Of a stretch of DNA of 64,000 bases, positions 1 through 42,619 are shown piece after piece. Position 1 is the stretch's first letter. Each line of letters starts with the position of its first letter. Source of the stretch: a virus (Duplodnaviria > Heunggongvirae > Uroviricota > Caudoviricetes). The stretch is from IMG/VR virus record IMGVR_UViG_3300046810_000041, positions 1-64,000 of that record, one strand, 5' to 3'. The notes beneath the pieces are model-generated. The model was not told the origin of the DNA, did not search any database, and saw only the letters and a program-made list of their open reading frames with translations. Made by a program: the position numbers and the translations under genes.

Positions 1-60
1 TACCTCGTTGGTGGTAAGAACCCTGAGTGGTATAAAAACTTGTAGTACGGATGGTCCACG

Positions 61-127
61 CAGCGCCCACAAATTCCCTTCCAAGGGTCTTTGTGGGCGC
101 TGCAATCATCTTTTTTTTTTTTTTTTT
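61..127 (+). terminator. Hairpin with 13-bp stem (61-73/90-102) and conserved loop CCCTTCCAAGGG, then an 8-nt spacer and a T17 tract (111-127)
   Basis: Inverted repeat cagcgcccacaaa/tttgtgggcgctg read directly, followed by 17 consecutive T. The spacer between stem and T-run is atypical for a classic intrinsic terminator. Confidence 0.4.
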
Positions 128-159: not shown

Positions 160-168
160 TGTTATAAT
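160..168 (+). promoter_or_regulatory. Host-type extended -10 promoter (TGTTATAAT) upstream of the early genes
   Basis: TGnTATAAT read directly at 160-168. There is no good -35 hexamer. Its position upstream of the first genes and the RNAP gene is consistent with host-RNAP early transcription. Confidence 0.3.
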
Positions 169-189: not shown

Positions 190-321
190 ATGGAAAAGCA
201 CGCACTCCACTTCATCCTCCTGGCACTCGCTCTGGTGGTATGTACGAAACTCTCCCTTGATGCGGTCATCATTGGAGCAGCGGCTCTCTTCGTATCTCAA
301 GTAAAGGCAATCAAGCTGTGA
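190..321 (+). CDS. Small hydrophobic peptide (43 aa), hypothetical
   Basis: ATG at 190, hydrophobic translation MEKHALHFILLALALVV..., first ORF after the promoter. Too short to appear in the ORF track. Confidence 0.25.
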   Translation: MEKHALHFILLALALVVCTKLSLDAVIIGAAALFVSQVKAIKL

Positions 322-429: not shown

Positions 430-2706
430 ATGAAACAAAAATTAGTTGCATCTATCACTGAGCGTCTTCAAACTGAAATCAATCCTCGGAATCCGGTAAA
501 GTTCCTCAAAGAACTCGACGTTTCCGAAATGATCGACGCTGCCACGGTTGTCCTCTATACTTTCACACGTGGAGGACGATCGTCTGGAACTAAGGCAAGG
601 CAAATCCTGATGTCAGAAGTCGTGTGCGCAATTGGCCACGGCATCCGTAATCGAAATCGCCTCAAGAAGGACTCTGCGCTGGCTGCAAGGGCTGGTGCAT
701 TCATTCTCTGGTCCTTTGAGAATCTTGGTATCGTTCTGACCAAGATGGGTAAAGCCGACAACAAGCATGGCACCTTCATTGTTGAAGTGACTGCTGAAGA
801 AGCTCTGGTGCAGCTGTTCGAAGACATCGATATCAAGAAGATCGAGAAGCTTCCTTCGCTGACTCCATATGCACCCTGGACTTCGACCAAGCATGAAACT
901 GGTGCTAATATGGTCAAGACTGCTGATCGGGATGTTCTTGCAATTATCAAACCCGAGACGCATCCGATGGTGTATGAATGCTTGAACAAAGCACAACGTA
1001 CTGGCTGGAATGTCAACAAGGATATTTATGCGATCTTCACGTGGGCTCTCAGAAATAAAACGGATGCGTTTGCAGACATCTGGGAAATGCAGAATCCGGA
1101 AGCCAAGTCCTCAAAGGTACGGGAGGCAAATGCAGTGGGCGCAATTGCAAAGCGCTTCCTCGATGAGACGTTCTATCATCTCTACTATTATGACTTCCGT
1201 GGTCGCAAGTACCCGGCCACTGCTTACTTTCACGAACAAGGAACTGACGCGTCTAAGGGCTTGCTTCTCAGACAAGACAGCTTCCGTATCGGAGAGCACG
1301 GCTTCAACTGGCTCCTCATTTCCATTGCATCCAATTGGGCTGGAAGCGCTGGGCGCGAGGATGGTGCAAAGACCGACAAAATCCCGCTGAAAGATCGTGT
1401 ATGCTGGGCACTCGACAATAAGGAGATTCTGCTGTCGTATGCAGAGAACCCGAAGGTCAATCAGGGCTGGATGAAGGCGGATAAGCCTTGGCAGTTCCTG
1501 GCAGCATGCAATGAATGGATGAAGTTGGAGAAATGGCTTAACGATGGAGGCTGGAAAAGTGAAGATGGAAGGCTTGTACACATTCGAGACCAAGCTGATT
1601 ATGAGTCTCATCTTGAGTGCTTCATCGATGGCAGTAATAACGGCAGTCAGCATTTGTCTGCGCTCACCTTGGACGAAGTTACTGCTCCTCACGTTAATCT
1701 GGTTCCAAGTGATCTCCCTGGTGATCTGTATAAGTATGTTGCTGATCACGTATGGGAAAAGATTACTGATGAAGCTGAGGCAATGCTCCAAGCTCAGGTC
1801 CAGGAACTTGAGCGTGTAATCGACACTGTCACTGACCTGAAGACCCAGATTCAGCAGGCACCGATGAAGTCTGATCGTCGAGAAGAGCTGATCAAACAGA
1901 TTCAAGCCTACAAGCGAGAGAAGAAAGAAGTCATCGCGCAGGCTGCAGTAATCTTCTGGTATCGCGTCACTGATGCCAAACATCGTCGTAAGGTAGTGAA
2001 GCGTAATGTGATGACTCTTCCGTATGGTGGTACTGCGTATGGCCTGGGTCAGCAGCAGATCGATGATGCACGCAAGCACGGCATTGAGTCCCTGATGTCA
2101 ATGGAGCATGCTTGGGGCTCTTACATGGGCCGAGAGGTCTTCGAGGACTGCAAGAAGTCGCTTGAGAAGCCGATGCGTCTGTTGTCTGTGTTTGAGGCTG
2201 CAGGTGAGAAGGCTGGTGCTGAAGGTCGTTTCCTTAGCTGGACTGCACCAATCACCAACTTCCCGGTCGTTCAGCATTACGTGGAAGGCACTACCAAGAA
2301 GATTCACGTTCAATATGGCCCCGCTGTTGGAGAGCGGAGCAAGAGCACTGGATACTACGACAATGATCGACAACTGCACATCTGTGTCATCGAGCAATCG
2401 AAGCCTTCACCGAAGAAGCAATCTACGGGTGCCTCGCCAAATGCAATTCACAGTTTGGACGCTGCTCATCTTACTCTGTGTGTTAATCGTTGTGATTTCC
2501 CTGTCACTACTATTCACGATTCTTTCGGCTGCTTACTTGGTCATATGGCCGATCTGTTTCGTATTGTCCGCGAAACGTTCGTGGAGCTGTACAAATCTAA
2601 ACCGCTAGAAAAGCTGATGCAGGACATCGGTGGTGACATTAGCCAAGTTGAGATTGGTACTCTCGATCTGAACCTCATCCTGGAATCGGAGTATTGCTTT
2701 GCTTAA
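430..2706 (+). CDS. T7-like single-subunit DNA-dependent RNA polymerase (758 aa)
   Basis: Translation contains the DFRGR (T/DxxGR) motif, motif A DGSNNGSQH, motif B RKVVKRNVMTLPYGG and motif C IHDSFG. These are the hallmark catalytic motifs of T7 gene 1 RNAP. Confidence 0.9.
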   Translation: MKQKLVASITERLQTEINPRNPVKFLKELDVSEMIDAATVVLYTFTRGGRSSGTKARQILMSEVVCAIGHGIRNRNRLKKDSALAARAGAFILWSFENLGIVLTKMGKADNKHGTFIVEVTAEEALVQLFEDIDIKKIEKLPSLTPYAPWTSTKHETGANMVKTADRDVLAIIKPETHPMVYECLNKAQRTGWNVNKDIYAIFTWALRNKTDAFADIWEMQNPEAKSSKVREANAVGAIAKRFLDETFYHLYYYDFRGRKYPATAYFHEQGTDASKGLLLRQDSFRIGEHGFNWLLISIASNWAGSAGREDGAKTDKIPLKDRVCWALDNKEILLSYAENPKVNQGWMKADKPWQFLAACNEWMKLEKWLNDGGWKSEDGRLVHIRDQADYESHLECFIDGSNNGSQHLSALTLDEVTAPHVNLVPSDLPGDLYKYVADHVWEKITDEAEAMLQAQVQELERVIDTVTDLKTQIQQAPMKSDRREELIKQIQAYKREKKEVIAQAAVIFWYRVTDAKHRRKVVKRNVMTLPYGGTAYGLGQQQIDDARKHGIESLMSMEHAWGSYMGREVFEDCKKSLEKPMRLLSVFEAAGEKAGAEGRFLSWTAPITNFPVVQHYVEGTTKKIHVQYGPAVGERSKSTGYYDNDRQLHICVIEQSKPSPKKQSTGASPNAIHSLDAAHLTLCVNRCDFPVTTIHDSFGCLLGHMADLFRIVRETFVELYKSKPLEKLMQDIGGDISQVEIGTLDLNLILESEYCFA

Positions 2707-3921: not shown

Positions 3922-3942
3922 CCAACCCGTTAAATTAACCCT
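3922..3942 (+). promoter_or_regulatory. Putative phage-RNAP promoter, exact 21-mer CCAACCCGTTAAATTAACCCT (copy 1)
   Basis: Identical 21-mer present at 5 sites in the window plus one variant. It is flanked by the inverted repeat gggcggcc/ggccgccc and lies upstream of the SSB gene. Confidence 0.6.
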
Positions 3943-4096
3943 AAGGCCGCCCTCCCCAGAGGGAATCCCAGGAGGGAACCCTCAGCTAAACCCTTGGTTA
4001 GTAGTTAGTTATAAACTATTAACTAAGGAGAATTGATTGTAAGAAGCAGTATTAGCATAATGCTAACAGACTAACATTATTTAAAGAGAATACACC

Positions 4097-5494: not shown

Positions 5495-7384
5495 ATGCCA
5501 CCACATCTGACAAAGAGACTTCTATTCGACATCGAAACTGATGGACTCCTCGTTACAGTAAGTGTAGCTCACATTGTGGGTTACCTGGACCTTGATACAA
5601 ACATCAAGAAAAGCTTCCGTGAAGGTGACGAAGGCTGGCGTGAAGACTTCGACCAGTGCAGACTGTTCGTAGGCCACAACATTATCGGTTATGACTTCCC
5701 GGCAATGTACAAAATCTTCAAGTGGCGTCCACACCCTGCAGCAAACATCCATGATACCATGCTGATGTCCCAAGCTCAGAACTATAGAAGGTTCATGAGC
5801 GGAACTCACAAGCTGGAAGATTGGGGTAATTTCCTGGGTTATCCTAAGGGTGATCATAGTGATTGGTCCAAGTGGACTCCTGATATGCAGATCTATTGGG
5901 AACGAGACATTGACCTGAACAAGAAAGTCTATGACTACTTGCTCGGTGAGTTCCGCGTTCTAATTGGTCGTAACATCTTCTTCAAGAAGTCTCTACAGAA
6001 CGAGCACATGGTTGCTAAGTTCTGTGCTAGAGCGCATGAAGTAGGCTGGCTCTTCGATAAGAAGTCTGGTCATGAGCTGCTGGCTGAAATGAAACAAGCT
6101 CTGCTGGACACGGAAGCAATCATTGTTCCGAAGCTGTTGGTAAAGACTGTAGCAATTGATAAAGTAAAAGGCGAGGTTGAGCCTAAGAAACCGAAGTGGC
6201 TGAAGAACGGCTGCTATGATATCCATACCTGCAAGTATTTCGGGATCACTCCTGAATCCGGTAAGGACGAAGATAATATGCTAGTGGTAGGTCCGTACTC
6301 TCGAATTGAGTTCGTAAATCCTACACTAAAGAATATGGAAGATGTGAAGACTTGGCTCTTCAGCATTGGTTGGGAACCTGACGACTGGAACCTCAAAAAG
6401 GAGCCAGATGGAACATGGCGTAAGGTTTCTCCGAAGCTGTCTGAGTCTTCGCTTCTGGCTTTAGGGCCGGATGGTGAATTGATTAACGACTACACGACTA
6501 CAAAATCTCGACATTCGATCCTGGAAGGCTGGCTGAGTTCCCTGGATGAGAATGATCGAATTCGTGGAGGTTGCTTCACCATTGCAACACCCACAGGTCG
6601 AGCACGGCACTCCGAGGTATGTAATGTACCCGGTGCAGAAGCTCCTTGGGGGAAACAGATCAGGTCGCTGTTCATCGCAGACCCTGGCTGGAAGATTGTT
6701 GGCGCTGACTCGTCTGGTAATCAGTTCCGAGCTTTGTGCCACTATCTGAAGAATGACAAATACACCGAGCTTGTGTTAACAGGTGATGTGCACCAAGAGA
6801 ATGCAAACGTTCTCACGGACATTCTTCAAGACATCGGTGTCTATAACTCCGAGCAGAAGGTGCCTCGTAAGACAGCTAAGCCTTTCATCTATGCATTCTT
6901 ATTTGGTGCAGGCGGTGAGAAGCTGTCGTTGATCGTGCTGGGTACACGTAACAAAAAGATTGGTAACAAGCTGAAGAATGAGTTCATTAAGCGAGTTCCT
7001 GGTCTGGAGCAACTGGTCGATAAAGTAACGAAGTTCTATTACAAGACCGAGCAGTATGGTAAGCCTTACATTCCAGGTGCGGATGGACGTAGGGTGTATT
7101 GTGACTCTCCGCATAAAGCACTGAACTATCTGCTTCAAGATTTTGAGGCTATTAGCTGTAAAGCAGCTGTGGCTTACATTATGGAGAAGTGTGAGAAGGA
7201 AGGTGTGCCATATATCCCACTCATCTGGTATCATGACGAATTTGAAATCATGGTTCCGGAAGAACACGCTGAGAAAGTCAGAGAGTGGAGTATCGAAGCC
7301 TACAGAGAATCAGGCAAGGAGTTTGGCATGATGATTCTGGATGGTGCAGGTAAAGTTGGTGATTCGTGGTATGATGTTCACTAA
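5495..7384 (+). CDS. Family A DNA polymerase with 3'-5' exonuclease domain
   Basis: Exo I motif DIETDGL and Exo II motif HNIIGYDFP. Pol motif A DSSGNQFR, motif B RKTAKPFIYAFLFG, motif C YHDEF. Confidence 0.9.
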   Translation: MPPHLTKRLLFDIETDGLLVTVSVAHIVGYLDLDTNIKKSFREGDEGWREDFDQCRLFVGHNIIGYDFPAMYKIFKWRPHPAANIHDTMLMSQAQNYRRFMSGTHKLEDWGNFLGYPKGDHSDWSKWTPDMQIYWERDIDLNKKVYDYLLGEFRVLIGRNIFFKKSLQNEHMVAKFCARAHEVGWLFDKKSGHELLAEMKQALLDTEAIIVPKLLVKTVAIDKVKGEVEPKKPKWLKNGCYDIHTCKYFGITPESGKDEDNMLVVGPYSRIEFVNPTLKNMEDVKTWLFSIGWEPDDWNLKKEPDGTWRKVSPKLSESSLLALGPDGELINDYTTTKSRHSILEGWLSSLDENDRIRGGCFTIATPTGRARHSEVCNVPGAEAPWGKQIRSLFIADPGWKIVGADSSGNQFRALCHYLKNDKYTELVLTGDVHQENANVLTDILQDIGVYNSEQKVPRKTAKPFIYAFLFGAGGEKLSLIVLGTRNKKIGNKLKNEFIKRVPGLEQLVDKVTKFYYKTEQYGKPYIPGADGRRVYCDSPHKALNYLLQDFEAISCKAAVAYIMEKCEKEGVPYIPLIWYHDEFEIMVPEEHAEKVREWSIEAYRESGKEFGMMILDGAGKVGDSWYDVH

Positions 7385-7389: not shown

Positions 7390-7545
7390 ATGGATCCGGT
7401 AGAGTACCTCGAAAGCTTAATAAGCAACGTAACTAAGATGCCAGTTCAAAAGAACGAACTGGAGCTTCTCAAACGATTCATTGAACTGGATCGAGTACGC
7501 AAAGAGGCTGCTCTACTGGCCTCAATTGCACAAACAGGACTTTAG
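7390..7545 (+). CDS. Small hypothetical protein (51 aa)
   Basis: Short ORF immediately after the DNAP stop. Not in the track because it is under 60 aa. Confidence 0.25.
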   Translation: MDPVEYLESLISNVTKMPVQKNELELLKRFIELDRVRKEAALLASIAQTGL

Positions 7546-7774: not shown

Positions 7775-7795
7775 CCAACCCGTTAAATTAACCCT
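7775..7795 (+). promoter_or_regulatory. Putative phage-RNAP promoter, exact 21-mer (copy 2)
   Basis: Exact CCAACCCGTTAAATTAACCCT, flanked by the inverted repeat gccctca/tgagggc. It lies upstream of the lipoprotein gene. Confidence 0.6.
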
Positions 7796-7845: not shown

Positions 7846-8637
7846 ATGAAGAAATTTGCTCTGATGATTATGGTTGCCCTGTCGATGGCAGCATGCACTC
7901 GCGTTCCGACTGGTGAAGTTGGTCTCCGTGTTAACTGGGACAAGACCATCGAAGCGAAAGAGCTGGTTGCTGGTTCGGTCAATCAAACCATCATCGGTGA
8001 CGTCGAGAAATTCCCGATCAAGGAAATCTCGGCAGAAGTGAATGACCTGTCTCCTCTGGCGGCTGACAATAGCACGATGAAGGATTTCGACATCGCAGTT
8101 GTCTACAACCTGAACCCTTCTTCGGTATCCGAACTGTACACCAAGAAGAGTCATTCGTTCCATGCCACCGCAAGGGACACTGGCGATACGTTGCTGATGT
8201 ACTCGTATATCCAGCTGACTGCCCGCAATGCAGTCTTCAAGGAAGCACGAAAGTACGCAGCACTGGAAATGAATGACAAGCGTACTCAGATCGAATCCGA
8301 TATCCTGGCAACCATGAAAGCAACTCTGGCTGCAGAAGGTCTCGGTAACGATATCACCATCTCACAGATCCAGGTCAAGAGCATTGCGCCTTCGGATGCT
8401 GTGAAACAATCGGCTGATGCACTGGTTCGTTCCCAGAATGAACAGAAGCAAAAGCAGATCGAAGTGGGTACTGCGAAGCTGGAATCCGAGCGTATCGCTG
8501 CATTGAACGCCAATGCGGGTGCTATCGGTTACATGCAAGCACAAGCCCAGATGAAAATTGCCGAAGGTATCGCCAATGGCAAGGTTCAAACCGTTGTGGT
8601 GCCTTATGACTTCAAAGGCATGATCAGCGTGAAGTGA
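7846..8637 (+). CDS. SPFH/band-7-like lipoprotein
   Basis: Signal peptide with lipobox MIMVALSMAAC. The segment MKDFDIAVVYNLNP resembles the SPFH core, and a C-terminal coiled coil is typical of HflK/C-like proteins. Confidence 0.5.
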   Translation: MKKFALMIMVALSMAACTRVPTGEVGLRVNWDKTIEAKELVAGSVNQTIIGDVEKFPIKEISAEVNDLSPLAADNSTMKDFDIAVVYNLNPSSVSELYTKKSHSFHATARDTGDTLLMYSYIQLTARNAVFKEARKYAALEMNDKRTQIESDILATMKATLAAEGLGNDITISQIQVKSIAPSDAVKQSADALVRSQNEQKQKQIEVGTAKLESERIAALNANAGAIGYMQAQAQMKIAEGIANGKVQTVVVPYDFKGMISVK

Positions 8638-10852: not shown

Positions 10853-11001
10853 TGTGCGATTGTGCTATCGATGATAACTGCATCTGTGATAACGAGCCTT
10901 TCGAGGAAGGCGACGAGTGTCATGGGTGTGGTTCTGAAGAAGTAAAATGGAACTCTCACCACAGACTTTACATTTGTGATAACTGTGGGTGGGAACACTA
11001 A
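10852..11001 (+). CDS. Small zinc-ribbon protein (49 aa)
   Basis: Two CxxC pairs (CHGCGSEE...CDNCGWEH). ATG overlaps the FEN stop (TGATG). Confidence 0.4.
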   Translation: MCDCAIDDNCICDNEPFEEGDECHGCGSEEVKWNSHHRLYICDNCGWEH

Positions 11002-11012
11002 GGATAAACGAA

Positions 11013-11645
11013 ATGCCTACAGCAGCAGAACTCAAGGCGATGATTAAAGTCATCAAGCCGAAAGTGGCCGAGGTAGAACCAGTAAAGAAGGTTCGAAAAG
11101 GCCGGGTTAGCAAGGACGTCAAAGAACTCAGCTTAAAGCATGAAGACGTCGAAAAGATTCCGAAGGCTAAACGTACCGTTACTCGGCGTAGCGATTACGA
11201 AGGCAACGGGCATTGGGCCTTTGATTCACCTATGGGCGGCAAGGGTAAGTTCGGTTTCATTTATGTGATTCACGATCTGATCAATGATAAGTACTATCTT
11301 GGAAAGAAACAATACCGAGGCACTGGCCAAGAGAATTTTGGAGTCGCTTCCAATTGGCCATGGTATACCTCCAGCCGGGATACCCTCGTAGAATTGATTA
11401 AGGCGCGTGGCAAAGAGCACTTTGAGTTCATTGTGCTTGAAGAGTACTCGTCGAATAAAGCATTGGGTTACGCAGAGACTTGGAGTCTTATGCGGGCAGA
11501 AACACCATCCAACCAAGGTAAATGGTATAACCGACTTGTGAACAAGGTGTCATGGTTCTGTTCAGAGGCAATCACGCAGCGACATAAAGACCGCCTAGAT
11601 GCGATCATCAAAGGTGAAGTGATTATTACTAAAGTGAATATATAA
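11013..11645 (+). CDS. GIY-YIG family endonuclease, possible homing endonuclease
   Basis: GFIYVIHDLINDKYYLGKK matches the GIY...YIG motif, followed by conserved R...H (ARGKEH) and E (LEEY). Free-standing between the FEN and primase genes. Confidence 0.55.
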   Translation: MPTAAELKAMIKVIKPKVAEVEPVKKVRKGRVSKDVKELSLKHEDVEKIPKAKRTVTRRSDYEGNGHWAFDSPMGGKGKFGFIYVIHDLINDKYYLGKKQYRGTGQENFGVASNWPWYTSSRDTLVELIKARGKEHFEFIVLEEYSSNKALGYAETWSLMRAETPSNQGKWYNRLVNKVSWFCSEAITQRHKDRLDAIIKGEVIITKVNI

Positions 11646-19053: not shown

Positions 19054-19139
19054 TCGTTAAAAGAGCGGTTATAAGGGTATCTTATATGAAGAATGTAAGA
19101 TATCCTTCAATCATTGTGTAGAATATACTGGAATAAATA

Positions 19140-23732: not shown

Positions 23733-23753
23733 CCAACCCGTTAAATTAACCCT
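23733..23753 (+). promoter_or_regulatory. Putative phage-RNAP promoter, exact 21-mer (copy 3, tandem pair)
   Basis: Exact CCAACCCGTTAAATTAACCCT followed by GAAAGGGAACGA. It is the first of two copies 64 bp apart. Confidence 0.6.
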
Positions 23754-23796: not shown

Positions 23797-23817
23797 CCAA
23801 CCCGTTAAATTAACCCT
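23797..23817 (+). promoter_or_regulatory. Putative phage-RNAP promoter, exact 21-mer (copy 4, tandem pair)
   Basis: Exact 21-mer with the same downstream GAAAGGGAACGA. It is the second unit of a roughly 64-bp tandem duplication upstream of the gene at 24004. Confidence 0.6.
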
Positions 23818-24003
23818 GAAAGGGAACGAGGAAGTTCGGCTGGCTTGCTGTCTCCAGGACGCTATGTCTTTTGGACTTCCTCACCTGAACACGCTTTAAC
23901 CTATACTCCGTAAAACTGCGGGTTTATAGGCATCTTATATGAAGAAGGCTCATAAGAGTTGACTTCGAATTCCATTACTTTTAAATTGAAACGAGAATAC
24001 ATC

Positions 24004-24441
24004 ATGACGAACGCAACCGAAAACCAGATCATCGACAACGCAGAAGCAACCGCACCGACCGTCGCCAAGAAGAAAGGCGCTGTCGCCCTGCTGAAGAAGC
24101 GCGCACTGTTCGAAGCTCCGGATGGCACCATCTTCGAAACCCAGAAGGAAGCCACCGAGTACCTGCGCCGCCACCTGAAAGTGGATGCTGTCAATGCTGT
24201 CGCTGCACTGTTCACGGGCGTCGATGCTGAAGGCAACGAGCAGACTCTGGGCCAATTCCTGCTGTCGAACGAAGATGCAATCCGCAAGGCATACGATGCT
24301 GCCAAAGTGGAACGCGCTCCGGTCACGGAAGAAACCAAGGCCAAGATGCGTGCTGCACGCGCCAAGCTGAAAGGTGAAGTCGCTCCGGCAGACCAAACCC
24401 CGGCTGATGCAGAAACCCAAGGCGATGCTCAAGCTGAGTAA
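24004..24441 (+). CDS. Hypothetical acidic/Ala-Lys-rich protein (145 aa)
   Basis: ORF trimmed to the ATG with the GAGAATACATCATG context. Confidence 0.5.
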   Translation: MTNATENQIIDNAEATAPTVAKKKGAVALLKKRALFEAPDGTIFETQKEATEYLRRHLKVDAVNAVAALFTGVDAEGNEQTLGQFLLSNEDAIRKAYDAAKVERAPVTEETKAKMRAARAKLKGEVAPADQTPADAETQGDAQAE

Positions 24442-24820
24442 TCGCGATCTAAGGAAAGTAGTTCGACTATAGAGATACTATAGCGGATCGAAATCCTTGG
24501 ACTACCCTTTGTTGAGCTTGCACTCAACTCCCGGCCCTATATAGACCTGAAATCTGTATAGGGCCACCTTTCTAATCTAATCTTAGACGATAAATAGTTA
24601 TGATCTGGCCGTAGTGTATTGAGTACATTTGAATAGACGATAATTGGATGAGTGACGCCTTTAGGGCATTGATAAGATTAGAGTGCCAGAATGGGTCTGG
24701 TATTCGCTTTGTTAAATATAATTAATATGATTTGGCGTTAGATTAGGGGGCATCGACCGAGTGTGGAGCTAACGGGATGCCCTCATTAACTAACGTAGTA
24801 GGATTTACCTAACAGAAACC
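24442..24820 (+). repeat. Repeat-rich non-coding region: palindromes CTATAG...CTATAG and ggccctata...tatagggcc, direct repeat TAGACGATAA x2, several further hairpins
   Basis: No protein-like ORF is present. Multiple inverted and direct repeats are read directly. Confidence 0.4.
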
Positions 24821-24892
24821 GCCACAGGTAAATCTACAGTAGCTCTTTATTGAGTTGCCGTAGATTTACCTGTGGCCTTTTTTTTTTTTTTT
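24821..24892 (+). terminator. Strong intrinsic terminator: perfect 17-bp stem (gccacaggtaaatctac/gtagatttacctgtggc) followed by T15
   Basis: Perfect inverted repeat with a T-tract immediately after it. It closes the replication module. Confidence 0.7.
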
Positions 24893-24915
24893 CGTTCCCT
24901 TTGTAAATAGCTGAG

Positions 24916-25182: not shown

Positions 25183-25187
25183 CACCT

Positions 25188-25209
25188 AGCGTCCCTTAAT
25201 TGGGGCGCT
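25188..25209 (+). promoter_or_regulatory. Hairpin agcgtccc-TTAATT-ggggcgct carrying the exact palindrome CCCTTAATTGGG
   Basis: The same 12-mer occurs in the loop of the 28832-28901 hairpin, with variants at 23316 and 78-89. Confidence 0.4.
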
Positions 25210-25226
25210 TAATTATTGAGGATGTA

Positions 25227-29171: not shown

Positions 29172-29192
29172 CCAACCCGTTAAATTAACCCT
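29172..29192 (+). promoter_or_regulatory. Putative phage-RNAP promoter, exact 21-mer (copy 5) with a leader homologous to the region downstream of copy 1
   Basis: Exact 21-mer. The downstream sequence CTAAGCGCCGCCTCCCCTAGAGGAAC... parallels 3943-3975 CTAAGGCCGCCCTCCCCAGAGGGAAT... Confidence 0.6.
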
Positions 29193-31284: not shown

Positions 31285-31305
31285 CCAACCCGTTAGATTA
31301 ACCCA
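31285..31305 (+). promoter_or_regulatory. Variant of the 21-mer promoter motif (CCAACCCGTTAGATTAACCCA, 2 mismatches)
   Basis: Lies between tRNA-Arg and the Trp-like tRNA. Confidence 0.3.
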
Positions 31306-35647: not shown

Positions 35648-35953
35648 ATGACCGACCAAGTTCAAGCTCCTGTGCTGAATAAACCTGTTGTGGCAAATGC
35701 TGCAGTCAAACCTGCTGAACCTATTGTTCAAGCAAATGCAGAAGTTAAAGAGCCTCCGAAGGAAGTCCCTAAGGAAGCTGCTCAGAAGTATCGTGTGACG
35801 CCTGGTACTCTGCTGCCTGCTGATCTGATTCCCGCCAATTGGGTCATCGAGACTACCTCGGAAGAGAATGTCATCTATGCCCGTAATGGTGTGACCAACA
35901 AAGAATTCGTGGGTCCGAAGAAAGACCTGGGTCGCTACCTCCGGGGTGAATAA
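35648..35953 (+). CDS. Hypothetical protein (101 aa)
   Basis: ORF between TerL and the putative portal. Confidence 0.45.
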   Translation: MTDQVQAPVLNKPVVANAAVKPAEPIVQANAEVKEPPKEVPKEAAQKYRVTPGTLLPADLIPANWVIETTSEENVIYARNGVTNKEFVGPKKDLGRYLRGE

Positions 35954-37596
35954 TGATCGTTACCGTTCCTAAAGCGACAGACGGTGCGGAAAGTAAAAAG
36001 AGTGTAGCTGATCCTACAACCTCTTACCTTACTATGCTCCCTCTGTGGGGCAAAAGCAGGGCTGTATGCAATGGTGAACGGGCTGTAAAAGAGTATGATG
36101 ATATTCTTGATTTAGTCGGATTCACTAACCTGCTGATTCCGTTCTCGCCCTCGATGTCCCCTGAACAGTACCAATGGTACAAATCAGAAGCAGAACTTCC
36201 TGGTATTGTCTCTCAGTATGCTAAGGTAATTGTGGGGGGATTGCTCCGTAAGAAGCCTTCCCTCGAACTACCTGAAGATGCTCCTGAAGATGCAATGGAC
36301 TGGATCATGAACCAATTCGCACAAGATGGTTCTCCTTTGGTTAACTTCCTAGATCAAGCTCTCTGGGAAGAAATGCAGACTTCTCGCGCTTGGGTTTACA
36401 TTGACTACCCTGCTGTAGAAGATGCAAAAGCCAATGCGATGACAAAGGAAGACTTCCTGGAATTGAAGCCTTATCCGGTAATCTGGAATGCTGAGTCCAT
36501 TGTTAACTACCGTGTTGGTGTTAGCTCTGAGACTGGTAATCAAGAACTCAAAATGGTTATTGTGCGTAACTATGAAGAGGACTATAAGGAAGGTGAATAT
36601 CACCCTACTCTAGTCGATACTGTCTGGGTTCATGAACTCAAAGACAATAAGTATCAGATTACCAAGTACCAGAATAAATCTGGGAAGGCTGGTATTCCTG
36701 TAATCAATGGTGCTATCCAGCAGAATTACACTGAGTCTGCTTCTGGCTTCGAACAAGATGGTGAAATCATCTATCCGAAGATTCAGGGCGAGCCTATGAC
36801 TGTAATCCCTGCATGGCCTCTGAATGGTTCGATTGGAATGGTTGATCCTATTCTGAACGCACTGATCGATCGCGAGCTTAGCCTGTACAACAAGCTTTCT
36901 CGTCGTAATCACCTTCTGTATGGCGCATCTACGTATACTCCTTGGATTGCCTCGGATATGCCTGATGAAGACTTCGAGAAGGTAGTAGGTCGTGGACTTG
37001 GTTCCTGGATTCACATCCCTAGTGGTGATACAATTGGCGTCCTTGAGACTCCGACTGCAGCACTACAAGATATGGATCGTGCTATCTCTGCCACTCTTGA
37101 AGAAATGGCGAAGATGGGCATTCGTATGCTGTCTCCTGAAGTGGACCAATCTGGTATTGCTTTGGAGATTCGCAATGCAGCTCAGACTGCTCAACTTGGT
37201 ACGTTAAATACTAAGGTCAGCAATCAGATGTCTAGCATCATCGCTTTCATGCTCAACTGGCGGTATGGTACGGATTACAAACCAGCTGATGTCAAATTCA
37301 AGCTTTCGGATGACTTCAATCCTGCCCCTCTGGGTGCTGATTGGCTGCGTCTGATTACTGAATGGTACCAGGCAGGTCTGATTCCACGTACTGTGTGGCT
37401 GTCGATCATGAAACAGAACGATATCGTACCTCCGGAATACGACGACAAGGAAGGCCAGAAAGAAATTAATGGTGACCCTCTGGTTGTTACTCCAAGGGAA
37501 GATATGCAGTTCGCAGCTCAATTGCAGAAAGAAGTTACGGCTCAAAAGACCGGACAACCAACTGCAAAACCAGCTGTTCCACCAGCGAAGAAGTAA
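35953..37596 (+). CDS. Putative portal protein
   Basis: 547 aa, placed between the large terminase and the MuF-domain minor head protein, which is the canonical portal position in SPP1/lambda-like modules. Assignment by synteny and size only. Confidence 0.5.
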   Translation: MIVTVPKATDGAESKKSVADPTTSYLTMLPLWGKSRAVCNGERAVKEYDDILDLVGFTNLLIPFSPSMSPEQYQWYKSEAELPGIVSQYAKVIVGGLLRKKPSLELPEDAPEDAMDWIMNQFAQDGSPLVNFLDQALWEEMQTSRAWVYIDYPAVEDAKANAMTKEDFLELKPYPVIWNAESIVNYRVGVSSETGNQELKMVIVRNYEEDYKEGEYHPTLVDTVWVHELKDNKYQITKYQNKSGKAGIPVINGAIQQNYTESASGFEQDGEIIYPKIQGEPMTVIPAWPLNGSIGMVDPILNALIDRELSLYNKLSRRNHLLYGASTYTPWIASDMPDEDFEKVVGRGLGSWIHIPSGDTIGVLETPTAALQDMDRAISATLEEMAKMGIRMLSPEVDQSGIALEIRNAAQTAQLGTLNTKVSNQMSSIIAFMLNWRYGTDYKPADVKFKLSDDFNPAPLGADWLRLITEWYQAGLIPRTVWLSIMKQNDIVPPEYDDKEGQKEINGDPLVVTPREDMQFAAQLQKEVTAQKTGQPTAKPAVPPAKK

Positions 37597-37699: not shown

Positions 37700-40600
37700 A
37701 TGGCTGAGATTAATGCTAACACTGCCATCTATGACAAGTCCGTAGATCGATCAGCAATGATTCGATTCTATGAGGAACGTGTCGGCGGTAAAATCAAAGA
37801 GGTAATGAAAGGGCATGAGCTTGATGTGATGAAGCTTATTGCTAGCACTCCCAAGAATGATCCAAAGCTCCGTGAAGAGCTGGATAAACTCTTGATTAAG
37901 AATTATGGCAACATGCATGATATCTCGAAGCGTTCCTTGATGGATCTCATCTTCGATCAGACATCTTACATGGTGCAGAGCCTGACTAAAGCTATTGGTG
38001 ACATCTGGTCTGTCAATAAGCCTCAGTACAGGATTGCAGAAGAGATTGCTCTCAATCGTCCTCTGTATAACGATGCTACCCTACTCCAAGGATGGCAAGG
38101 TGTATCGATCGCTGAAAGAAAACGCCTCGAAGCAGTAATCCGTAAAGGTATTGCTCAAGGTCAATCAGAAGCTGAGATTGCTTTGGAAGTCCGTAAGGGT
38201 AATGTGTTCAACATTTCCAGAACTCAATCGCTTGGTCTTGTGCGTACTGCCATGACTAGTGTTGTGGTTCAAACAGATCATGAAGTCTACAAAGCAAATG
38301 AAAAGGCCTTACAAGGTTGGCAGTATATTGCTGTGCTCGATAGTCGTACTACTCCTATTTGTGCTCATCGTGATGGTACAATCTACGATATTAGCGATAC
38401 TGAACATCTACCACCTTCGCACTGGAACTGCCGATCGACTACTGTCCCTGTTGTCAAGCACTGGTCTGACTTACTTAAGCTTGATGGTGTGGCACAGATT
38501 CGTAGGAAGAACCTGGAGAGCCTGACAGATAAGCAGAAAGCGTACTATGATGGTTTGACTCCTTCGAAAGAGTCTTATCAAGATTGGCTTTCTCGTCAGC
38601 CTACACTTGTTCAGTTGAAGCATCTTGGTGATTACGCCAAAGTAGAAGCCTTCCAACAAGGTAAACTGACTGTAGATAAATTTACAAACGATGATGGTAA
38701 ATCCATCGGTATTAAAGAACTGAGACAGTTGACCAATGAGACCTTCACGGCTCCTGGTGATACTACTCGATTCGGTAATGCCAAAGAAAAGCTGGATGCT
38801 ATTCGCTTAGGTGTGAATCGTCCAGAAGACCTGATCAACAACCCTGATCTGCAGGCTGCACTCAAGGAATACTACTTGCTTCAAGCAGGTGATCTTGATG
38901 GTACTCTGTCGCTCACTAGTTATCGTGGTACGCTTGTTGGTAACAAGAAAGCTACTAAGACTCGTGTTCTTAACTCTCCTCCAAGGGAAGAGAATTTGAA
39001 GTACAATCCTGTGACTGGTCGTTATGATGATTCTCGTATGTATCAGCCTTCTGCTGAGGCACTTGAGAACTCTCTGCGTCTGGTTAATGAAGCTGCCTCT
39101 TTGAAAGACGAGGATAAAGTCTTCATTAATAACTTTATTGCAGGTATGGAGAACTTTGTAGGCACTAACGAAAGAGCTGTGATTACAGAAAATCTGCGTA
39201 TTGTGTTTACTCGATTCCGCGATAACAAAGAGCCTTGGGCTAATTTCAAAGCAGTCCTGAACTCTCAGATGAAGTTTGACGTGATGAACGTTTCTGACTA
39301 TATCGAGACTCAGCTGCGTAAAGACGGTAATCTCCTGACTCGTTTGAAGCAAGACAACTACATTGACCCTGTCCTTGGTGTTGTTCAGCTTGACGATCTT
39401 GAGAAGACCTTCATTGACAACATTAAGGAAAAGAATGCTTGGGAAGATAAGACCGCCCCTAAGATCGCGAAAGAGCTTCGTGGACTTCTTGATCTGGACA
39501 TTCCTCTGCGAATTAGGACACGCCTTAGTAATGATGATCTCGAAGCTTTTTATCTTCGTTTTGCTAACCGCTTGTCTGTTGCTGATACTCCTGACCGTGA
39601 CCAACTGGCAGTCTCTTTGGGACGGGACCTTTACAATTCCGCTAACTGGCGTGGTGACAGACGTGCATGGTTCGACTTAGGTTCTAAGCTGCTGAATAGC
39701 CCTCGGGTGAAAAGCTACTGGAAGCAAGAGACAACGATGACTACTAAGCGTCGTATGAAGAGTAGACTTTCGGGTCAATACTTCGGTCCTTACTATGACT
39801 CGTTCACTGTCAATATTCGTATTGTCGATCCAAGGATTCAGCGCTATGCACAACTTACCCGAAAAGTCGATGTTGGACTCCGATTGGGAGTCTTTAATGA
39901 GCGTAATAAGCTCTACATCCGACCCGGCTTTAAGACTTACTGGACTAAAGGTATTCTTGGCTACGAGGACACAAGAATTCCCATTACCTCCACGAATTCT
40001 TTCTCAGATTTCCCAGAAGAACTGGTTGACAACAATCTGTCCGACGCTCTTAACTGGGCATCAACCACTAAGTACAAAGTAGACCCTGAGTTCCACGACT
40101 TCATCGAGAAATTGCTGATGTTCGAGGACGATAAGGGTAAAGCTCAGTACTATCATGGTTTGAATCAGTATCGTAGTTACATCGCTGAACGTGGTGATGC
40201 CTATGAACGATTTAAAGCTATGAAGTGGCTTCGGGATAAAGAAATTGGATTTGCTAATCATGCATTCGTAGACCATCGTGCTCGTATTTACGACCGTGGT
40301 ATGATTAGCCCTCAGTCTGGTGAAACATTCCGTCCATTCCTTAATACGAGTGAGCCTGTGAATTTCTCCCCAGAAGAGTTTGACAACTTGCAGGATCAGA
40401 TAGGTGCTTTCTTAGGAGGTCTCTCAGACCACTTTGAAGGAAGGTACAATTCCCTGTCTATCCTTGGTCGTCAGAAGATCGCTGAGATGTGGAGAGATGA
40501 ACTGGTCAAGATCGGTAACCATATCCTGAGAAATAAACCTGGAGATATTCGTGCTGTCCTGGAGTCTGACTTCCTGGCACATATCGAAGGTGAAGAGCAA

Positions 40601-42619
40601 GGTAAAGCTATGCGCTTCGCTCTGGAAATGGCAAAGATCGATAAGTATCTGAAAGAGAAGGCTAGTGTAGTCTTCCAAGAACCTGACCTGAGCTTTATTC
40701 GTGATGGTGATGAGTACATTGACATTAACAAAGTACACCAGTTGGCTCACTTGAAGCCGATTGAGAAAGTTAATGTGGATGATGTCAACATCTTCGTGGA
40801 TGAAACTCTTTCAGAGCACTCCGCAAGGAAGCTCCCTAAAGGTGATGAGAAACGAATTAAGAAAGCAGACTTGGATGCACCTGTGGTTGTGGAGTTAGAT
40901 GAAGGCCAATACGGTCAACAAGACTTCAAATACCACTGGCTCGATGGTTACCACCGCTTAGTGAAAGCAAAGCGTGATGGCATCAAAGAGATTCAAGTAC
41001 AAGTGCTCTCTGCAAAAGATGTGAAGAAGGCCCGAGTGCAGCACTACGATCAGTTGACTGAAGGTAATCCCAAAGAGATTCTGTGGGGTAAGCCGATCAA
41101 CCCGTATTCGCCGCTTAACTTGAGGCACCTCAACAACTACAAAATCAGTGTCGCTCTGGAGCAGGATGCTTCCTCCTCTGGTGCACAGATTATTGCTCTG
41201 ACTACGAAGAACAAACAGCTCGCCAATCTGTCTAATGTTATTCCAACTAACCAGAAGCAACGTCTGTATGACGAGATTGCAGCAGCTACCTACCAAGATC
41301 CTCGTTTCCAAGAACTGAATAAGCGATTGGGACTCTCCGAGAAGGATCTACGTAAGGCTGCTAAAGCTCAGAACATGGTTACTTTCTATGGTGCTGGTGA
41401 ACGTACTGGTATTCTGAATGTGGAAGGTAAGCTCGCGAAAGCCCTTAGCAAACAACCTGGAACAATGGTGGTTAAGGCTTCTGACCGAGACAAAGTACTT
41501 AACGAAATCTCGGCTCGTATGGCTCGATATGAAAAATTCGATCCAGACACATATGAAGAACTTAAGGCTCTTCGTCAAGACGTGCGTGACATCTTCAACA
41601 AAGGCCAACAGCCTAGTGATGACATCATGTACCAATTGTATTTCTTAGAGCCTAAAACGAGAGACCTGGTGGATAAGATGACGCGTCAGTACGACAATGT
41701 TGTTACTCCGCAGGACTTCTCAACAATTGCAAAGATTATGAGCGAGAATCTTTCAATCCAAGTCCCAATCCTCAAAGACTTCACCAGATTCTTCGGAAGA
41801 CTGGCGGAAGACTTCGTAACAAACGCTAAACCTGGGGATAGCAAGAAAGATCTTGCAGAAGTACTCAAAGAGAAAGCCTTTGGTCAGCGCAAAGGACAGC
41901 CTCCAGAACTCCTTAACCGGATTCCGGGATGGCATCCAGGAAGTCCTTTGTCTGAAATGCTCTATGGCGTGCGTGAGAAGAAACTACCTAAGAAATGGAC
42001 TAACATTCCTTGGGTTAACTTTGATGGTAAGACAATTGAACAGAACTTCACTCAAGTGTTCGAGGAGCGTTTGACTTACAAGGACAAGAATGGTAAGTGG
42101 GTGACTAATATCCTGCAAGTACCACAGAAAACTGATCCCACATTCTGGGATGAGCTTGTGAATAAGAGCGACCTCTTCAATGATATTGTTGATGCTCAGA
42201 AAGCAAGAACTGCATTTGCGGTTAACGGTAATCACTCAAATGATGCTGTGATCGTTAAGCGTTTCCATCTGTGGGGCAAAGAGAAGGATATTCCGACTTC
42301 TACTATCCATGATGCGTTCTTTACAAATGCTGCTAAGCTGCTTGAGGCTAGAAGCGCACTCAGAGAAATCTATGGTGACATCGTTACGACCAATCCTGTT
42401 CAAAATACTCTCGATGAGATGTATAAACGAGGTTTACCAAAAGAGCTCTACAAGAAATACTTAAATGAAGCTATCGACATTGGCCTGATACCTGTGGTTG
42501 GAAGGTCGCGTGTTGGCGGTAAGCTCATTACCGAGGATGACATCCTCACGAAGGAAGATATTCTAGCGCCTATCCCTAAAGGGTTCAAAGAGAACCTTGG
42601 ATGGTATGGCATTGGATGA
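37700..42619 (+). CDS. Giant minor-capsid fusion protein: N-terminal Mu-F/SPP1-gp7-like head domain, central region, C-terminal T7/N4-like single-subunit RNA polymerase domain with a ParB-like insertion (candidate virion RNAP)
   Basis: MuF motif ...TTPICAHRDGTIYDISDTEHLPPSHWNCRSTTVP (about 38340-38445). RNAP motifs: DHRARIYDRG...SPQSG (T/DxxGR region, 40271), motif A QDASSSGAQ (41165), motif B KAQNMVTFYGAG (41363-41392), a HSND block, and motif C IHDAFF (42308). ParB-like WLDGYHRLVKA at 40937-40969. Confidence 0.8.
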   Translation: MAEINANTAIYDKSVDRSAMIRFYEERVGGKIKEVMKGHELDVMKLIASTPKNDPKLREELDKLLIKNYGNMHDISKRSLMDLIFDQTSYMVQSLTKAIGDIWSVNKPQYRIAEEIALNRPLYNDATLLQGWQGVSIAERKRLEAVIRKGIAQGQSEAEIALEVRKGNVFNISRTQSLGLVRTAMTSVVVQTDHEVYKANEKALQGWQYIAVLDSRTTPICAHRDGTIYDISDTEHLPPSHWNCRSTTVPVVKHWSDLLKLDGVAQIRRKNLESLTDKQKAYYDGLTPSKESYQDWLSRQPTLVQLKHLGDYAKVEAFQQGKLTVDKFTNDDGKSIGIKELRQLTNETFTAPGDTTRFGNAKEKLDAIRLGVNRPEDLINNPDLQAALKEYYLLQAGDLDGTLSLTSYRGTLVGNKKATKTRVLNSPPREENLKYNPVTGRYDDSRMYQPSAEALENSLRLVNEAASLKDEDKVFINNFIAGMENFVGTNERAVITENLRIVFTRFRDNKEPWANFKAVLNSQMKFDVMNVSDYIETQLRKDGNLLTRLKQDNYIDPVLGVVQLDDLEKTFIDNIKEKNAWEDKTAPKIAKELRGLLDLDIPLRIRTRLSNDDLEAFYLRFANRLSVADTPDRDQLAVSLGRDLYNSANWRGDRRAWFDLGSKLLNSPRVKSYWKQETTMTTKRRMKSRLSGQYFGPYYDSFTVNIRIVDPRIQRYAQLTRKVDVGLRLGVFNERNKLYIRPGFKTYWTKGILGYEDTRIPITSTNSFSDFPEELVDNNLSDALNWASTTKYKVDPEFHDFIEKLLMFEDDKGKAQYYHGLNQYRSYIAERGDAYERFKAMKWLRDKEIGFANHAFVDHRARIYDRGMISPQSGETFRPFLNTSEPVNFSPEEFDNLQDQIGAFLGGLSDHFEGRYNSLSILGRQKIAEMWRDELVKIGNHILRNKPGDIRAVLESDFLAHIEGEEQGKAMRFALEMAKIDKYLKEKASVVFQEPDLSFIRDGDEYIDINKVHQLAHLKPIEKVNVDDVNIFVDETLSEHSARKLPKGDEKRIKKADLDAPVVVELDEGQYGQQDFKYHWLDGYHRLVKAKRDGIKEIQVQVLSAKDVKKARVQHYDQLTEGNPKEILWGKPINPYSPLNLRHLNNYKISVALEQDASSSGAQIIALTTKNKQLANLSNVIPTNQKQRLYDEIAAATYQDPRFQELNKRLGLSEKDLRKAAKAQNMVTFYGAGERTGILNVEGKLAKALSKQPGTMVVKASDRDKVLNEISARMARYEKFDPDTYEELKALRQDVRDIFNKGQQPSDDIMYQLYFLEPKTRDLVDKMTRQYDNVVTPQDFSTIAKIMSENLSIQVPILKDFTRFFGRLAEDFVTNAKPGDSKKDLAEVLKEKAFGQRKGQPPELLNRIPGWHPGSPLSEMLYGVREKKLPKKWTNIPWVNFDGKTIEQNFTQVFEERLTYKDKNGKWVTNILQVPQKTDPTFWDELVNKSDLFNDIVDAQKARTAFAVNGNHSNDAVIVKRFHLWGKEKDIPTSTIHDAFFTNAAKLLEARSALREIYGDIVTTNPVQNTLDEMYKRGLPKELYKKYLNEAIDIGLIPVVGRSRVGGKLITEDDILTKEDILAPIPKGFKENLGWYGIG

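Follow-up and report, generated by a model that had tools for sequence, protein, structure and literature searches.

The virion-delivered RNA polymerases (RNAPs) known to us are those of N4-like podoviruses, which are single-subunit enzymes, of crAss-like phages and of phiKZ-like jumbo phages. T7 and Xanthomonas phage Xp10 use the host RNAP early and then a phage RNAP; Xp10 runs on the host enzyme and one phage RNAP. N4 (Schitoviridae) encodes two T7-superfamily single-subunit RNAPs in one genome, the virion RNAP gp50 and RNAPII (gp15/gp16). The N4-like virion RNAP is a podoviral protein some 3500 aa long that carries a zincin-like peptidase/encapsidation region at its C-terminus, and the portions of a survey drawn on here place single-subunit virion RNAP modules only in N4-like phages (PMC5512222). 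The same portions describe Mu-F effector fusions ('polyvalent proteins', MuF toxins), in which the Mu-F domain carries a C-terminal enzyme thought to be delivered together with the DNA (PMC5512222).

The 64,000-nt stretch of Caudoviricetes DNA analysed here (the window) likewise encodes two T7-superfamily single-subunit RNAPs, one within a predicted virion protein and the other in the early region, a likeness to N4 that implies a polymerase relay. Unlike N4 gp50, the enzyme within the predicted virion protein belongs to a 1639-aa fusion with an N-terminal Mu-F domain, in a siphovirus-type genome with a tape measure protein. None of the four N4 virion RNAP domains (PF21894, PF21769, PF21867 and PF21624), all of which are present in gp50, was detected in the fusion at E <= 0.01, and the profile of the fusion family scored -2 bits on gp50. 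The fusion also differs from other Mu-F fusions in that its cargo appears to be a complete DNA-dependent RNA polymerase domain, which is not among the cargoes named in the portions of the survey cited above (PMC5512222).

The free-standing RNAP shares the fold, the motifs and the F-A-COOH end of the T7/Autographiviridae enzymes; as in those phages, its gene precedes every copy of a conserved promoter-like motif of about 20 bp, and the replication module resembles that of T7 in having a gp2.5-like SSB, Pol A, an exonuclease, a primase-helicase and a ligase. In contrast to these likenesses, the enzyme is 21-22% identical to T7 RNAP and has about 166 aa fewer ahead of the T/DxxGR motif (aa 255 versus 421), while a siphovirus morphogenesis module, a second polymerase and a second motif class set the phage itself apart from T7. 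The T7-type RNAP of the siphovirus Xp10 is 29% identical to the free RNAP by tblastn. The closest cultured relatives of the free RNAP are found in the Naomiviridae, represented by roseophages DSS3_VP1 and DSS3_PM1 with dU-containing DNA, which encode a separate 732-aa RNAP and, following the portal, a 1463-aa head protein with Mu-F and PF00940 domains and the four motifs; identity over the two proteins compared is 34% (free RNAP) and 28% (fusion), and the promoter motif differs. We also noted that the 1463-aa protein is recorded as 'minor head protein-like protein' in DSS3_VP1 and DSS3_PM1, with the RNAP domain unannotated in the records. The main text of the description of the Naomiviridae does not mention RNA polymerases (PMC8323127), and a literature search of incomplete coverage turned up no account of a Mu-F-RNAP fusion, or of a pair of RNAPs, in these phages.

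The free-standing RNAP and the head-protein fusion

The free RNAP gene (430..2706, + strand, ATG start) encodes a 758-aa T7-type single-subunit RNAP that matches Pfam PF00940 RNA_pol at 219.4 bits (cut-off 22, E 1.1e-64) and PHROG 414 'RNA polymerase' at E 8e-117. Against PDB sequences, phmmer returned T7 RNAP (E 6e-37) and mitochondrial RNAPs (E 8e-38), and an AF2 model (pLDDT 87.2) matched the T7 RNAP-promoter complex 1cez_A (TMq 0.74, E 1.5e-28), with a long beta-hairpin at aa 618-659 in the place of the T7 RNAP specificity loop. The four catalytic motifs reported in a first-pass annotation of this DNA are all present: the T/DxxGR motif DFRGR (aa 255-259, nt 1192-1206), motif A DGSNNGSQH with catalytic Asp D400 (aa 400-408, nt 1627-1653), motif B KRNVMTLPYGG with K524 and Y532 (aa 524-534, nt 1999-2031) and motif C IHDSFG with catalytic Asp D697 (aa 695-700, nt 2512-2529). 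To these can be added the equivalent of T7 H784, H674 in NAIHSLD (aa 671-677, nt 2440-2469), and a T7-like C-terminal ...CFA (nt 2689-2703). DFRGR, D400, K524/Y532, H674, D697 and the C-terminal FA were invariant in 51 aligned homologues. The protein is a complete and presumably active T7-type RNAP, which taken alone adds one more unremarkable sequence to the T7 RNAP family. A megablast search of 50,697 phage records with the gene gave no match, so it has no close sequenced relative there.

The second polymerase lies in a 1639-aa protein (37700..42619, + strand) that joins a Mu-F/SPP1-gp7-type head domain (Phage_Mu_F, PF04233, aa 143-248; 60.6 bits against a cut-off of 29.6) to a divergent RNAP of the T7/mitochondrial type (approximately aa 440-1639), for which PF00940 scores 45 bits, over its cut-off. 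The portal protein gene (35953..37596, + strand; PHROG 145 portal, E 6e-57) is immediately 5′ of it, and the head module runs in the order TerL (34294-35622), portal, fusion, scaffold (42689-43369, + strand) and major head protein (43387-44568, + strand); flanked in this way, the fusion gene fills the canonical Mu-F slot. The RNAP part contains DHRAR at the T/DxxGR site (nt 40271-40285), motif A EQDASSSGAQ (nt 41159-41188), motif B KAQNMVTFYGAG (nt 41363-41398), an H784 equivalent (nt 42224-42247) and motif C IHDAFF (nt 42305-42322), together with a lineage-specific insertion of ParB/sulfiredoxin fold (approximately nt 40649-41140). Because phmmer with the C-terminal 939 aa found nothing among PDB sequences at E <= 1, recognition of its kinship to RNAPs needed the Pfam and PHROG profiles and a structure model; the AF2 model (pLDDT 80.5) had T7 RNAP (E 1e-15) and mitochondrial RNAPs as its best Foldseek matches.

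Conservation within the fusion family is strict at the catalytic positions. Both catalytic Asp residues, the motif B Lys, Tyr and Gly and the T/DxxGR Arg do not vary among 22 aligned members with identities as low as about 25%; of the motif residues only the two ribose-reading His change, in the five most divergent of the 22. The catalytic residues are kept in 108 of 110 close homologues as well as in the DSS3_VP1 protein. The fusion gene of EBPR siphovirus 1 is interrupted exactly within motif B (NMV|TFYGAG) by a group I intron that carries an HNH ORF, as fits the typical homing of introns into essential catalytic sites. Six divergent homologues all retain the N-terminal Mu-F domain, and among 1.84 billion representatives this RNAP lineage is met almost exclusively as the C-terminal part of proteins 1400-2070 aa long; by tblastn with the fusion as query, RNAP-bearing head proteins were seen solely in EBPR siphovirus 1 and DSS3_VP1/PM1. 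The joint conservation of catalytic residues and Mu-F linkage speaks for an enzymatic function linked to the virion. Judged from sequence and fold, a second RNAP of T7/mitochondrial type, with intact catalytic residues, makes up the C-terminal half of the fusion; the first-pass annotation had considered that this domain might be dead for want of the Asp residues, and both are kept. By analogy with Mu-F/SPP1 gp7 proteins, we infer that the fusion is packaged in the capsid and injected.

The two enzymes are only distantly related to each other, the free RNAP scoring 130 bits to T7 RNAP versus 31.6 bits to its genome-mate (24% identity over 75 aa). An origin of the fusion by recent duplication of the free RNAP gene, which the first-pass annotation had put forward for checking, was rejected on these scores, the free RNAP being nearer to T7 RNAP than to the fusion. 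The pair co-occurs in the cultured Naomiviridae phages DSS3_VP1 and DSS3_PM1 and on one 74,461-bp JGI contig, which was checked directly, and 11 further contigs, paired by their lengths, apparently appear in both match lists. By these comparisons the gene pair is conserved across a large, mostly uncultured clade that includes the Naomiviridae, and what had at first been described as unusual outside N4-like phages is no peculiarity of one genome.

Two classes of promoter-like motif

A 21-mer, CCAACCCGTTAAATTAACCCT (class I; consensus written AACCCGTTAAATTAACCC(T/A) and also given as AACCCGTTAAATTAACCCT), occurs in five exact copies and one with two mismatches, against 0 expected by chance. All copies are on the + strand, have sharply bounded edges and lie downstream of the free RNAP gene, and no copy was found within 9.6 kb upstream of that gene. 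The first (3922..3942) is upstream of the gp2.5-like SSB, a kinase-like ORF and the DNA polymerase, the next (7775..7795) follows the DNA polymerase gene, and a tandem pair is located at 23733-23753 and 23797-23817. The copy at 29172..29192 comes after the third hairpin/T-run and has a 67-nt leader in common with the 3922 copy, and the variant with two mismatches (31285..31305) is inside the tRNA cluster and is followed by no further copy ahead of the terminase and structural genes. Relative L126 has an identical 18-mer at the equivalent site downstream of its RNAP gene, and a related contig (L067) also has the tandem pair. The 17-nt core is found exactly at 122 sites in at least 117 stretches of viral contigs with random flanks. 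In the late region of DSS3_VP1 there are eight copies of a T7-promoter-like sequence, (T)AATAGGTKRCGTTAAAGAGGGGG, that has the core CGTTAAA in common with class I. These observations support the view that the 21-mer behaves like a phage-RNAP promoter. The initial proposal that the 21-mers serve the replication module is too narrow, as the copies at 29172 and 31285 stand at the front of the tRNA cluster and of the stretch leading to the late genes.

Class II has the consensus TGCGG-N8-GnATCTTATATG (also given as AAACTGCGG-N8-GGTATCTTATATGAA) and is present in four copies in this phage, in two in L126 and at 132 sites spread over 105 viral contig stretches; several of these lie on contigs with class I as well. 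Within the window, the copy aGCGG-N8-GgTATCTTATATG (19064..19088, + strand) is upstream of the ligase region, and another (23917..23941, + strand) follows the tandem class I pair by about 120 nt and precedes ORF 23959-24441; in four related contigs the class I core is exactly 50-51 nt upstream of the class II motif. The remaining two copies are upstream of the window (L004 5518-5542 and L004 6827-6851); the second of these stands at the front of the early region of small ORFs leading up to the RNAP gene. Going upstream from the free RNAP gene, the first conserved promoter-like element to be met is class II, here as in L126. The consensus, by our reading, misfits sigma-70 spacing, and it ends in TATAT plus a purine, so that it looks no less T7-like than class I does. 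Alternatively, class II may be a site for a regulator, or for a host or phage sigma factor.

Directly before the RNAP operon is a long GC-rich hairpin followed by a T17 run (56..127, + strand; RNA fold -39.2 kcal/mol, z = -9.3), which probably serves as a terminator or attenuator at the end of the upstream early region. An extended -10 match, TGTTATAAT (160..168, + strand), sits directly 3′ of it and is the sole TGnTATAAT in the window, where 1.7 are expected by chance. A small hydrophobic ORF of 43 aa (190..321, + strand), for which Pfam gave no match, precedes the RNAP gene. The layout of hairpin, pyrimidine spacer, T10-17, small hydrophobic ORF and RNAP is common to relatives L126, L006 and L007. 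TGnTATAAT is absent upstream of the RNAP gene in relatives (RNAPs 53-69% identical) that keep the hairpin, T-run and small ORF, and L126 has no room for a promoter because just ~20 nt separate its T-run from the first ORF. When the early region and 1-20 kb were scanned for the sigma-70 consensus, counts did not exceed shuffle expectation, so that sequence alone makes no case for host promoters. The host-type extended -10 promoter assigned to the RNAP gene at first pass thus exists as a sequence, but at chance level and without conservation in relatives; given this sigma-70-like element, host RNAP could transcribe the free RNAP gene in this phage. Three hairpin-containing repeats, E1-E3, in the early region upstream of the window (L004 7198-7947) resemble N4-style hairpin promoters; they were dropped as a clade-wide set of such promoters, as they had a single exact match in the viral collection.

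A possible transcription relay and its alternatives

We put at about an even chance the proposition that the phage has two polymerases, each with its own promoter class, of which the free RNAP is the middle/late transcriptase. The pairing of enzymes with motifs would be fusion with class II and free RNAP with class I, and across a large clade the two genes and the two motif classes are conserved as a set. In this scheme the capsid would take up a few molecules of the 1639-aa fusion beside the portal, and these would enter the cell with the DNA, where the fusion would transcribe the units headed by class II, including the early small-ORF region, and read-through of the hairpin/T-run at 56-127 would reach the free RNAP operon; host RNAP may act instead of, or beside, the fusion at this stage. 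The new 758-aa RNAP would then recognise class I, and the six copies (3.9-31.3 kb) would drive the T7-like replication/nucleotide module, which comprises SSB, DNA polymerase, exonuclease, primase-helicase, RNR and ligase. From class I the free RNAP would also transcribe the tRNA cluster and, by read-through from the copies at 29172 and 31285, the genes for packaging, head, tail and lysis, all of which are on the same strand as the class I copies. Because the late region (33-64 kb) contains no copy of class I or class II, late transcription would need read-through of more than 30 kb or an unrecognised signal. The unit 24916-28819 begins 23 nt after a hairpin/T-run with neither motif class in front, and Rfam at the gathering threshold detected only tRNAs in the window and so gave no account of its two long non-coding stretches.

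A rather unlikely alternative, though one to be taken seriously, is that the phage works as T7 and Xp10 do, host RNAP transcribing the early region and, from TGTTATAAT, the RNAP operon, and the free RNAP the rest, with the fusion as an auxiliary for genome pull-in, replication priming or late action in the cell. The position of the extended -10 match, directly past a strong terminator and before the operon, agrees with this course, as does the lack of a clade-wide hairpin-promoter set. Against it stand the chance frequency of that match, its absence from relatives and the cramped spacer of L126, and also the position of class II, conserved and off the sigma-70 fit, at the head of the early region. 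The strict conservation of catalytic residues and Mu-F linkage further argues for a virion-tied enzyme and not an auxiliary. The opposite pairing, in which the fusion reads class I and the free RNAP reads class II, draws on the TATAT plus purine end of class II, which resembles the promoters of T7, T3 and SP6 that end in this way, and on the auto-amplification that class II upstream of the free RNAP gene would permit. We consider it distinctly improbable, since class I lies only downstream of the free RNAP gene and heads the units for replication, tRNAs and late functions, where transcription must be plentiful, since DSS3_VP1 has its eight class-I-like, T7-promoter-like sites before structural genes, and since a handful of injected molecules would make a poor late transcriptase.

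Scarcely credible is the reading of the fusion RNAP domain as a dead relic that leaves the phage a single functional polymerase. The low Pfam score and the empty phmmer search against PDB speak for it, yet the domain's catalytic Asp, motif B and T/DxxGR Arg residues are invariant to about 25% identity, the model is confident with T7 and mitochondrial RNAPs as best matches, and a homing intron targets motif B in a relative. We return, then, to the relay from fusion to free RNAP, and tentatively extend it to the whole clade, which may have independently evolved a virion-delivered single-subunit RNAP, of T7/mitochondrial type and linked to Mu-F, with a relay largely independent of host RNAP in which the fusion uses class II and the free RNAP class I; we hold this wider reading at somewhat less than even confidence.

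Implications

The interest of this locus is in the pairing of two RNAPs and not in the free RNAP alone. The arrangement, which hundreds of metagenomic clusters and a cultured marine family share, would represent a second route to the virion-RNAP strategy, in siphovirus-type genomes and with the widespread Mu-F head protein as the vehicle; if this is true, it is a type of virion RNAP apart from those of N4, crAss-like and phiKZ-like phages. Two short, sharply defined and clade-conserved candidate promoters, together with two compact and possibly mutually orthogonal polymerases, make the model testable in vitro and may be of use as a transcription tool. For the Naomiviridae, polymerases brought in or made by the phage could, speculatively, explain how a dU-containing genome is transcribed.

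A free and a head-fused RNA polymerase

The open reading frame at 430-2706 on the + strand encodes a T7-type single-subunit RNA polymerase of 758 aa (free RNAP), which matched Pfam RNA_pol (PF00940; E 1.1e-64; 219 bits, cut-off 22), PHROG 414 'RNA polymerase' (E 8e-117) and, among PDB sequences, T7 RNAP (E 6e-37) and mitochondrial RNAPs (E 8e-38). Every motif quoted in the first-pass annotation was found in place: DFRGR (the T/DxxGR motif; aa 255-259), DGSNNGSQH (aa 400-408), KRNVMTLPYGG (aa 524-534) and IHDSFG (aa 695-700). The segment NAIHSLD is equivalent to T7 His784 and the C-terminus (...CFA) is T7-like, while the T/DxxGR motif lies at aa 421 in T7 RNAP, such that the stretch preceding it is approximately 166 aa shorter in the free RNAP. 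For an AlphaFold model with 51 homologues as input (pLDDT 87.2), the best superposition was on 1cez_A, a complex of T7 RNAP with its promoter (TMq 0.74, E 1.5e-28); the model contained a long beta-hairpin at aa 618-659, at the site of the T7 specificity loop. Taken alone, the free RNAP gene is an ordinary new member of a well-known family.

The second polymerase forms the C-terminal part of a 1639-aa head protein (37700-42619) that carries a Phage_Mu_F domain at aa 143-248 (60.6 bits) and a PF00940 match of 45 bits, over the cut-off. This fusion contains DHRAR (aa 858), motif A EQDASSSG (aa 1154) and motif C IHDAFF (aa 1536), each of the latter two with its catalytic Asp, as well as motif B KAQNMVTFYGAG (aa 1222) and NGNHSND (aa 1509). 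Of 110 close full-length homologues, 108 retained the motifs, as did the homologue from roseophage DSS3_VP1 (28% identity). Across 22 aligned representatives, with identities down to ~25%, the motif A and motif C Asp, the motif B Lys, Tyr and Gly and the T/DxxGR Arg were invariant; two His positions varied in the five most divergent. In EBPR siphovirus 1 (JF412302; 28901-29764) the annotated gp47 and gp49 proved to be exons of a single Mu-F-RNAP gene, split exactly within motif B (between ...KAQNMV and TFYGAG...) by a group I intron with an HNH endonuclease ORF, gp48 (Rfam RF00028, 40.5 bits, E 1e-8, under the gathering score of 50). Exon 2 opens immediately past the HNH stop codon (TFYGAGERTG), and an intron inside motif B is as expected for a homing element targeting an indispensable catalytic site. 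The first-pass annotation had allowed for a C-terminal domain lacking the Asp residues, which would leave a single functional RNAP; a dead domain is not supported, given the conservation of the catalytic motifs across the family and the placement of the intron, and both sequence and predicted structure indicate a second RNAP that is not dead.

Relationship and distribution of the two polymerases

Phylogeny had been proposed to reveal whether the fusion arose by duplication of the free RNAP gene. This origin was not borne out: BLASTP between the two gave 31.6 bits (24% identity over 75 residues near motif C), versus ~130 bits for the free RNAP against T7 RNAP and ~133 bits against human mitochondrial RNAP. 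A profile of the fusion family scored 12.9 bits on T7 RNAP, 11.9 on N4 gp16, -1.9 on the free RNAP of the window and -2.0 on N4 gp50. With both cross-scores between the two polymerases low, a recent duplication can be ruled out, and on these BLASTP and profile scores we regard the fusion as belonging to the T7/mitochondrial superfamily, in a lineage that is old and has diverged fast. An N4-type virion RNAP was likewise rejected, as the fusion matches none of the four dedicated Pfam families that N4 gp50 hits.

The RNAP half of the fusion was found in over 424 clusters (90% identity), nearly all of them labelled just 'SPP1 gp7 family head morphogenesis protein', and in 157 proteins (65 at E <= 1e-30) among 1.84 billion 50%-identity representatives. 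Full-length members of the 157 are 1400-2070 aa long and end in the RNAP, and an N-terminal Mu-F domain was present in 6/6 divergent homologues tested. The free RNAP was represented by ~497 clusters. Both genes occur together on a 74,461-bp JGI contig that was checked directly, 11 more contigs agree exactly in length between the hit lists for the two genes, and the cultured roseophages DSS3_VP1 and DSS3_PM1 (Naomiviridae) carry both. There the large protein is labelled 'minor head protein-like', and the RNAP domain of the 1463-aa DSS3_VP1 protein (MN602266) is unannotated in the records. The main text of the paper describing these phages (PMC8323127) does not mention RNA polymerases, and our literature search found no description of a Mu-F-RNAP fusion; Iyer et al. 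2017 (PMC5512222), where it treats virion RNAP modules, confines them to N4-like phages.

Genome layout and promoter-like elements

The window is part of a contig of ~78.5 kb, with flanks of 9.6 kb upstream (L004) and 3.5 kb downstream (L005) taken from identical Logan contigs, and every gene in the window lies on the + strand. Upstream of the window are tail and lysis genes, then a run of small ORFs ending at a hairpin ahead of the RNAP operon. Downstream of the free RNAP gene is a T7-like replication/nucleotide module (gp2.5-like SSB, family A DNA polymerase, 5'-3' exonuclease, primase-helicase, RNR subunits, ligase and DHH phosphoesterase), in which a GIY-YIG SegE-like homing endonuclease gene (10989-11645; PF19835, E 4.5e-14) separates the exonuclease gene from that of the primase-helicase. 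It is followed by a cluster of 9-10 tRNA genes (31193-33348), for which ARAGORN called nine (Arg, Trp, Asn, Gln, Pro, Tyr, Thr, Ile, Gly) and Rfam added one at 32137-32208 and missed Tyr. The siphovirus morphogenesis module then comprises TerL, portal, the fusion, scaffold, major head protein and a 2916-aa tape measure protein (47821-56571), which implies an unusually long tail. Directly 5' of the large terminase gene, at 33914-34285, is a homologue of N4 gp49 and Sf6 gp66 (PF13876, E 5e-29), a small gene shared with N4-like phages separately from the polymerase theme.

Five exact + strand copies of the 21-mer CCAACCCGTTAAATTAACCCT (class I) were located at 3922, 7775, 23733, 23797 and 29172, with a chance expectation of 0, sharp edges and unrelated flanks; a + strand variant with two mismatches (31285) sits between tRNA-Arg and tRNA-Trp. 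Neither the 9.6 kb preceding the free RNAP gene nor the late region contained a copy. In IMG/VR contigs the exact 17-nt core recurred at no fewer than 122 sites, spread over at least 117 stretches; many of the matches listed lie on 60-78 kb contigs, and the conserved block is AACCCGTTAAATTAACCC(T/A) with random flanks. In L126, a related contig whose free RNAP is 69% identical, the first copy occupies the equivalent place downstream of the RNAP gene. DSS3_VP1, a phage with dU-DNA, has (within 1010-28193) eight copies of (T)AATAGGTKRCGTTAAAGAGGGGG ahead of late genes, a sequence that resembles the T7 promoter and has CGTTAAA in common with class I. The first-pass assignment of the 21-mers to the replication module needs correcting in so far as it restricts them to that module. 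The copies at 3922 and 29172 are each followed by 46 nt more of similar GC-rich, structured leader (3922-3988 and 29172-29238; 67 nt in all, 73% identity), which points to a shared 5' UTR element.

In a k-mer screen, intergenic DNA yielded a second promoter-like motif, aa.TGCGGaAAaa..gGTATCTTATATGAaa (class II), at 19064 and 23917 in the window and at 5518 and 6827 in L004. It occurs twice in L126 and, among viral contigs, at 132 sites distributed over 105 stretches. Class I is present too on several of the contigs concerned, and in four cases its core lies exactly 50-51 nt upstream of class II. The class II 3' end, TATAT then a purine, is likewise T7-like, and by our reading of the consensus its blocks are too closely spaced for sigma-70 hexamers. 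Class II is the nearest conserved promoter-like element 5' of the free RNAP gene both in the window phage and in L126.

The host-type extended -10 promoter assigned to this gene is TGTTATAAT at 160-168, after a -39 kcal/mol hairpin and T17 run. One such match was seen in the window versus 1.7 expected by chance; relatives retain the hairpin, T-run and small hydrophobic ORF and lack the -10 element, and the gap from T-run to ORF is only ~20 nt in L126. Sigma-70 consensus scans of the early region and of 1-20 kb gave counts no higher than the shuffle expectation. The assignment thus needs correcting: host transcription of the free RNAP gene is possible in the window phage, and as a conserved feature it is not supported.

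Very long perfect hairpins resembling that at 56-127, each followed by a T13-14 run, were also found at 24820-24893 and 28832-28916, and the extended non-coding regions that they flank (24441-24916 and 28952-29357) gave no Rfam match. The ORF after the first starts 23 nt past the hairpin/T-run, with no recognisable promoter and neither motif class ahead of it (unit 24916-28819). In L004, three copies of a 54-nt element (7198-7251, 7458-7511 and 7894-7947; 2.4-1.6 kb before the window begins) each lie just ahead of a small early ORF and contain two hairpins (GAGGG...CCCTC and GTAGC...GCTAC); these may act as hairpin promoters or as sites of RNase processing, and only one exact match was present in the viral contig collection.

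A possible polymerase relay

The presence of two viral polymerases, together with two promoter-like classes seen across the clade, is consistent with a relay. In it, class II units would be transcribed by the head-fused RNAP or by host RNAP; among them is the early region, from which transcription would continue past the hairpin/T-run and reach the RNAP operon. Class I would then be served by the free RNAP, and with it the replication and tRNA genes. Neither class occurs within 33-64 kb, and late genes may be transcribed by free RNAP running on from the class I copies at 29172 and 31285. We infer this pairing of enzymes and motifs solely from where they lie and by the precedent of T7 and N4, and packaging and ejection of the fusion are proposed by analogy with known Mu-F/SPP1 gp7 proteins. 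The earlier proposal of two single-subunit RNAPs in a two-polymerase programme holds up, strengthened by the conserved catalytic residues of the fusion, the clade-wide co-occurrence of the genes and the second promoter-like class, and the arrangement in the window phage would represent a variant, in N4 style, of the polymerase relay of N4.
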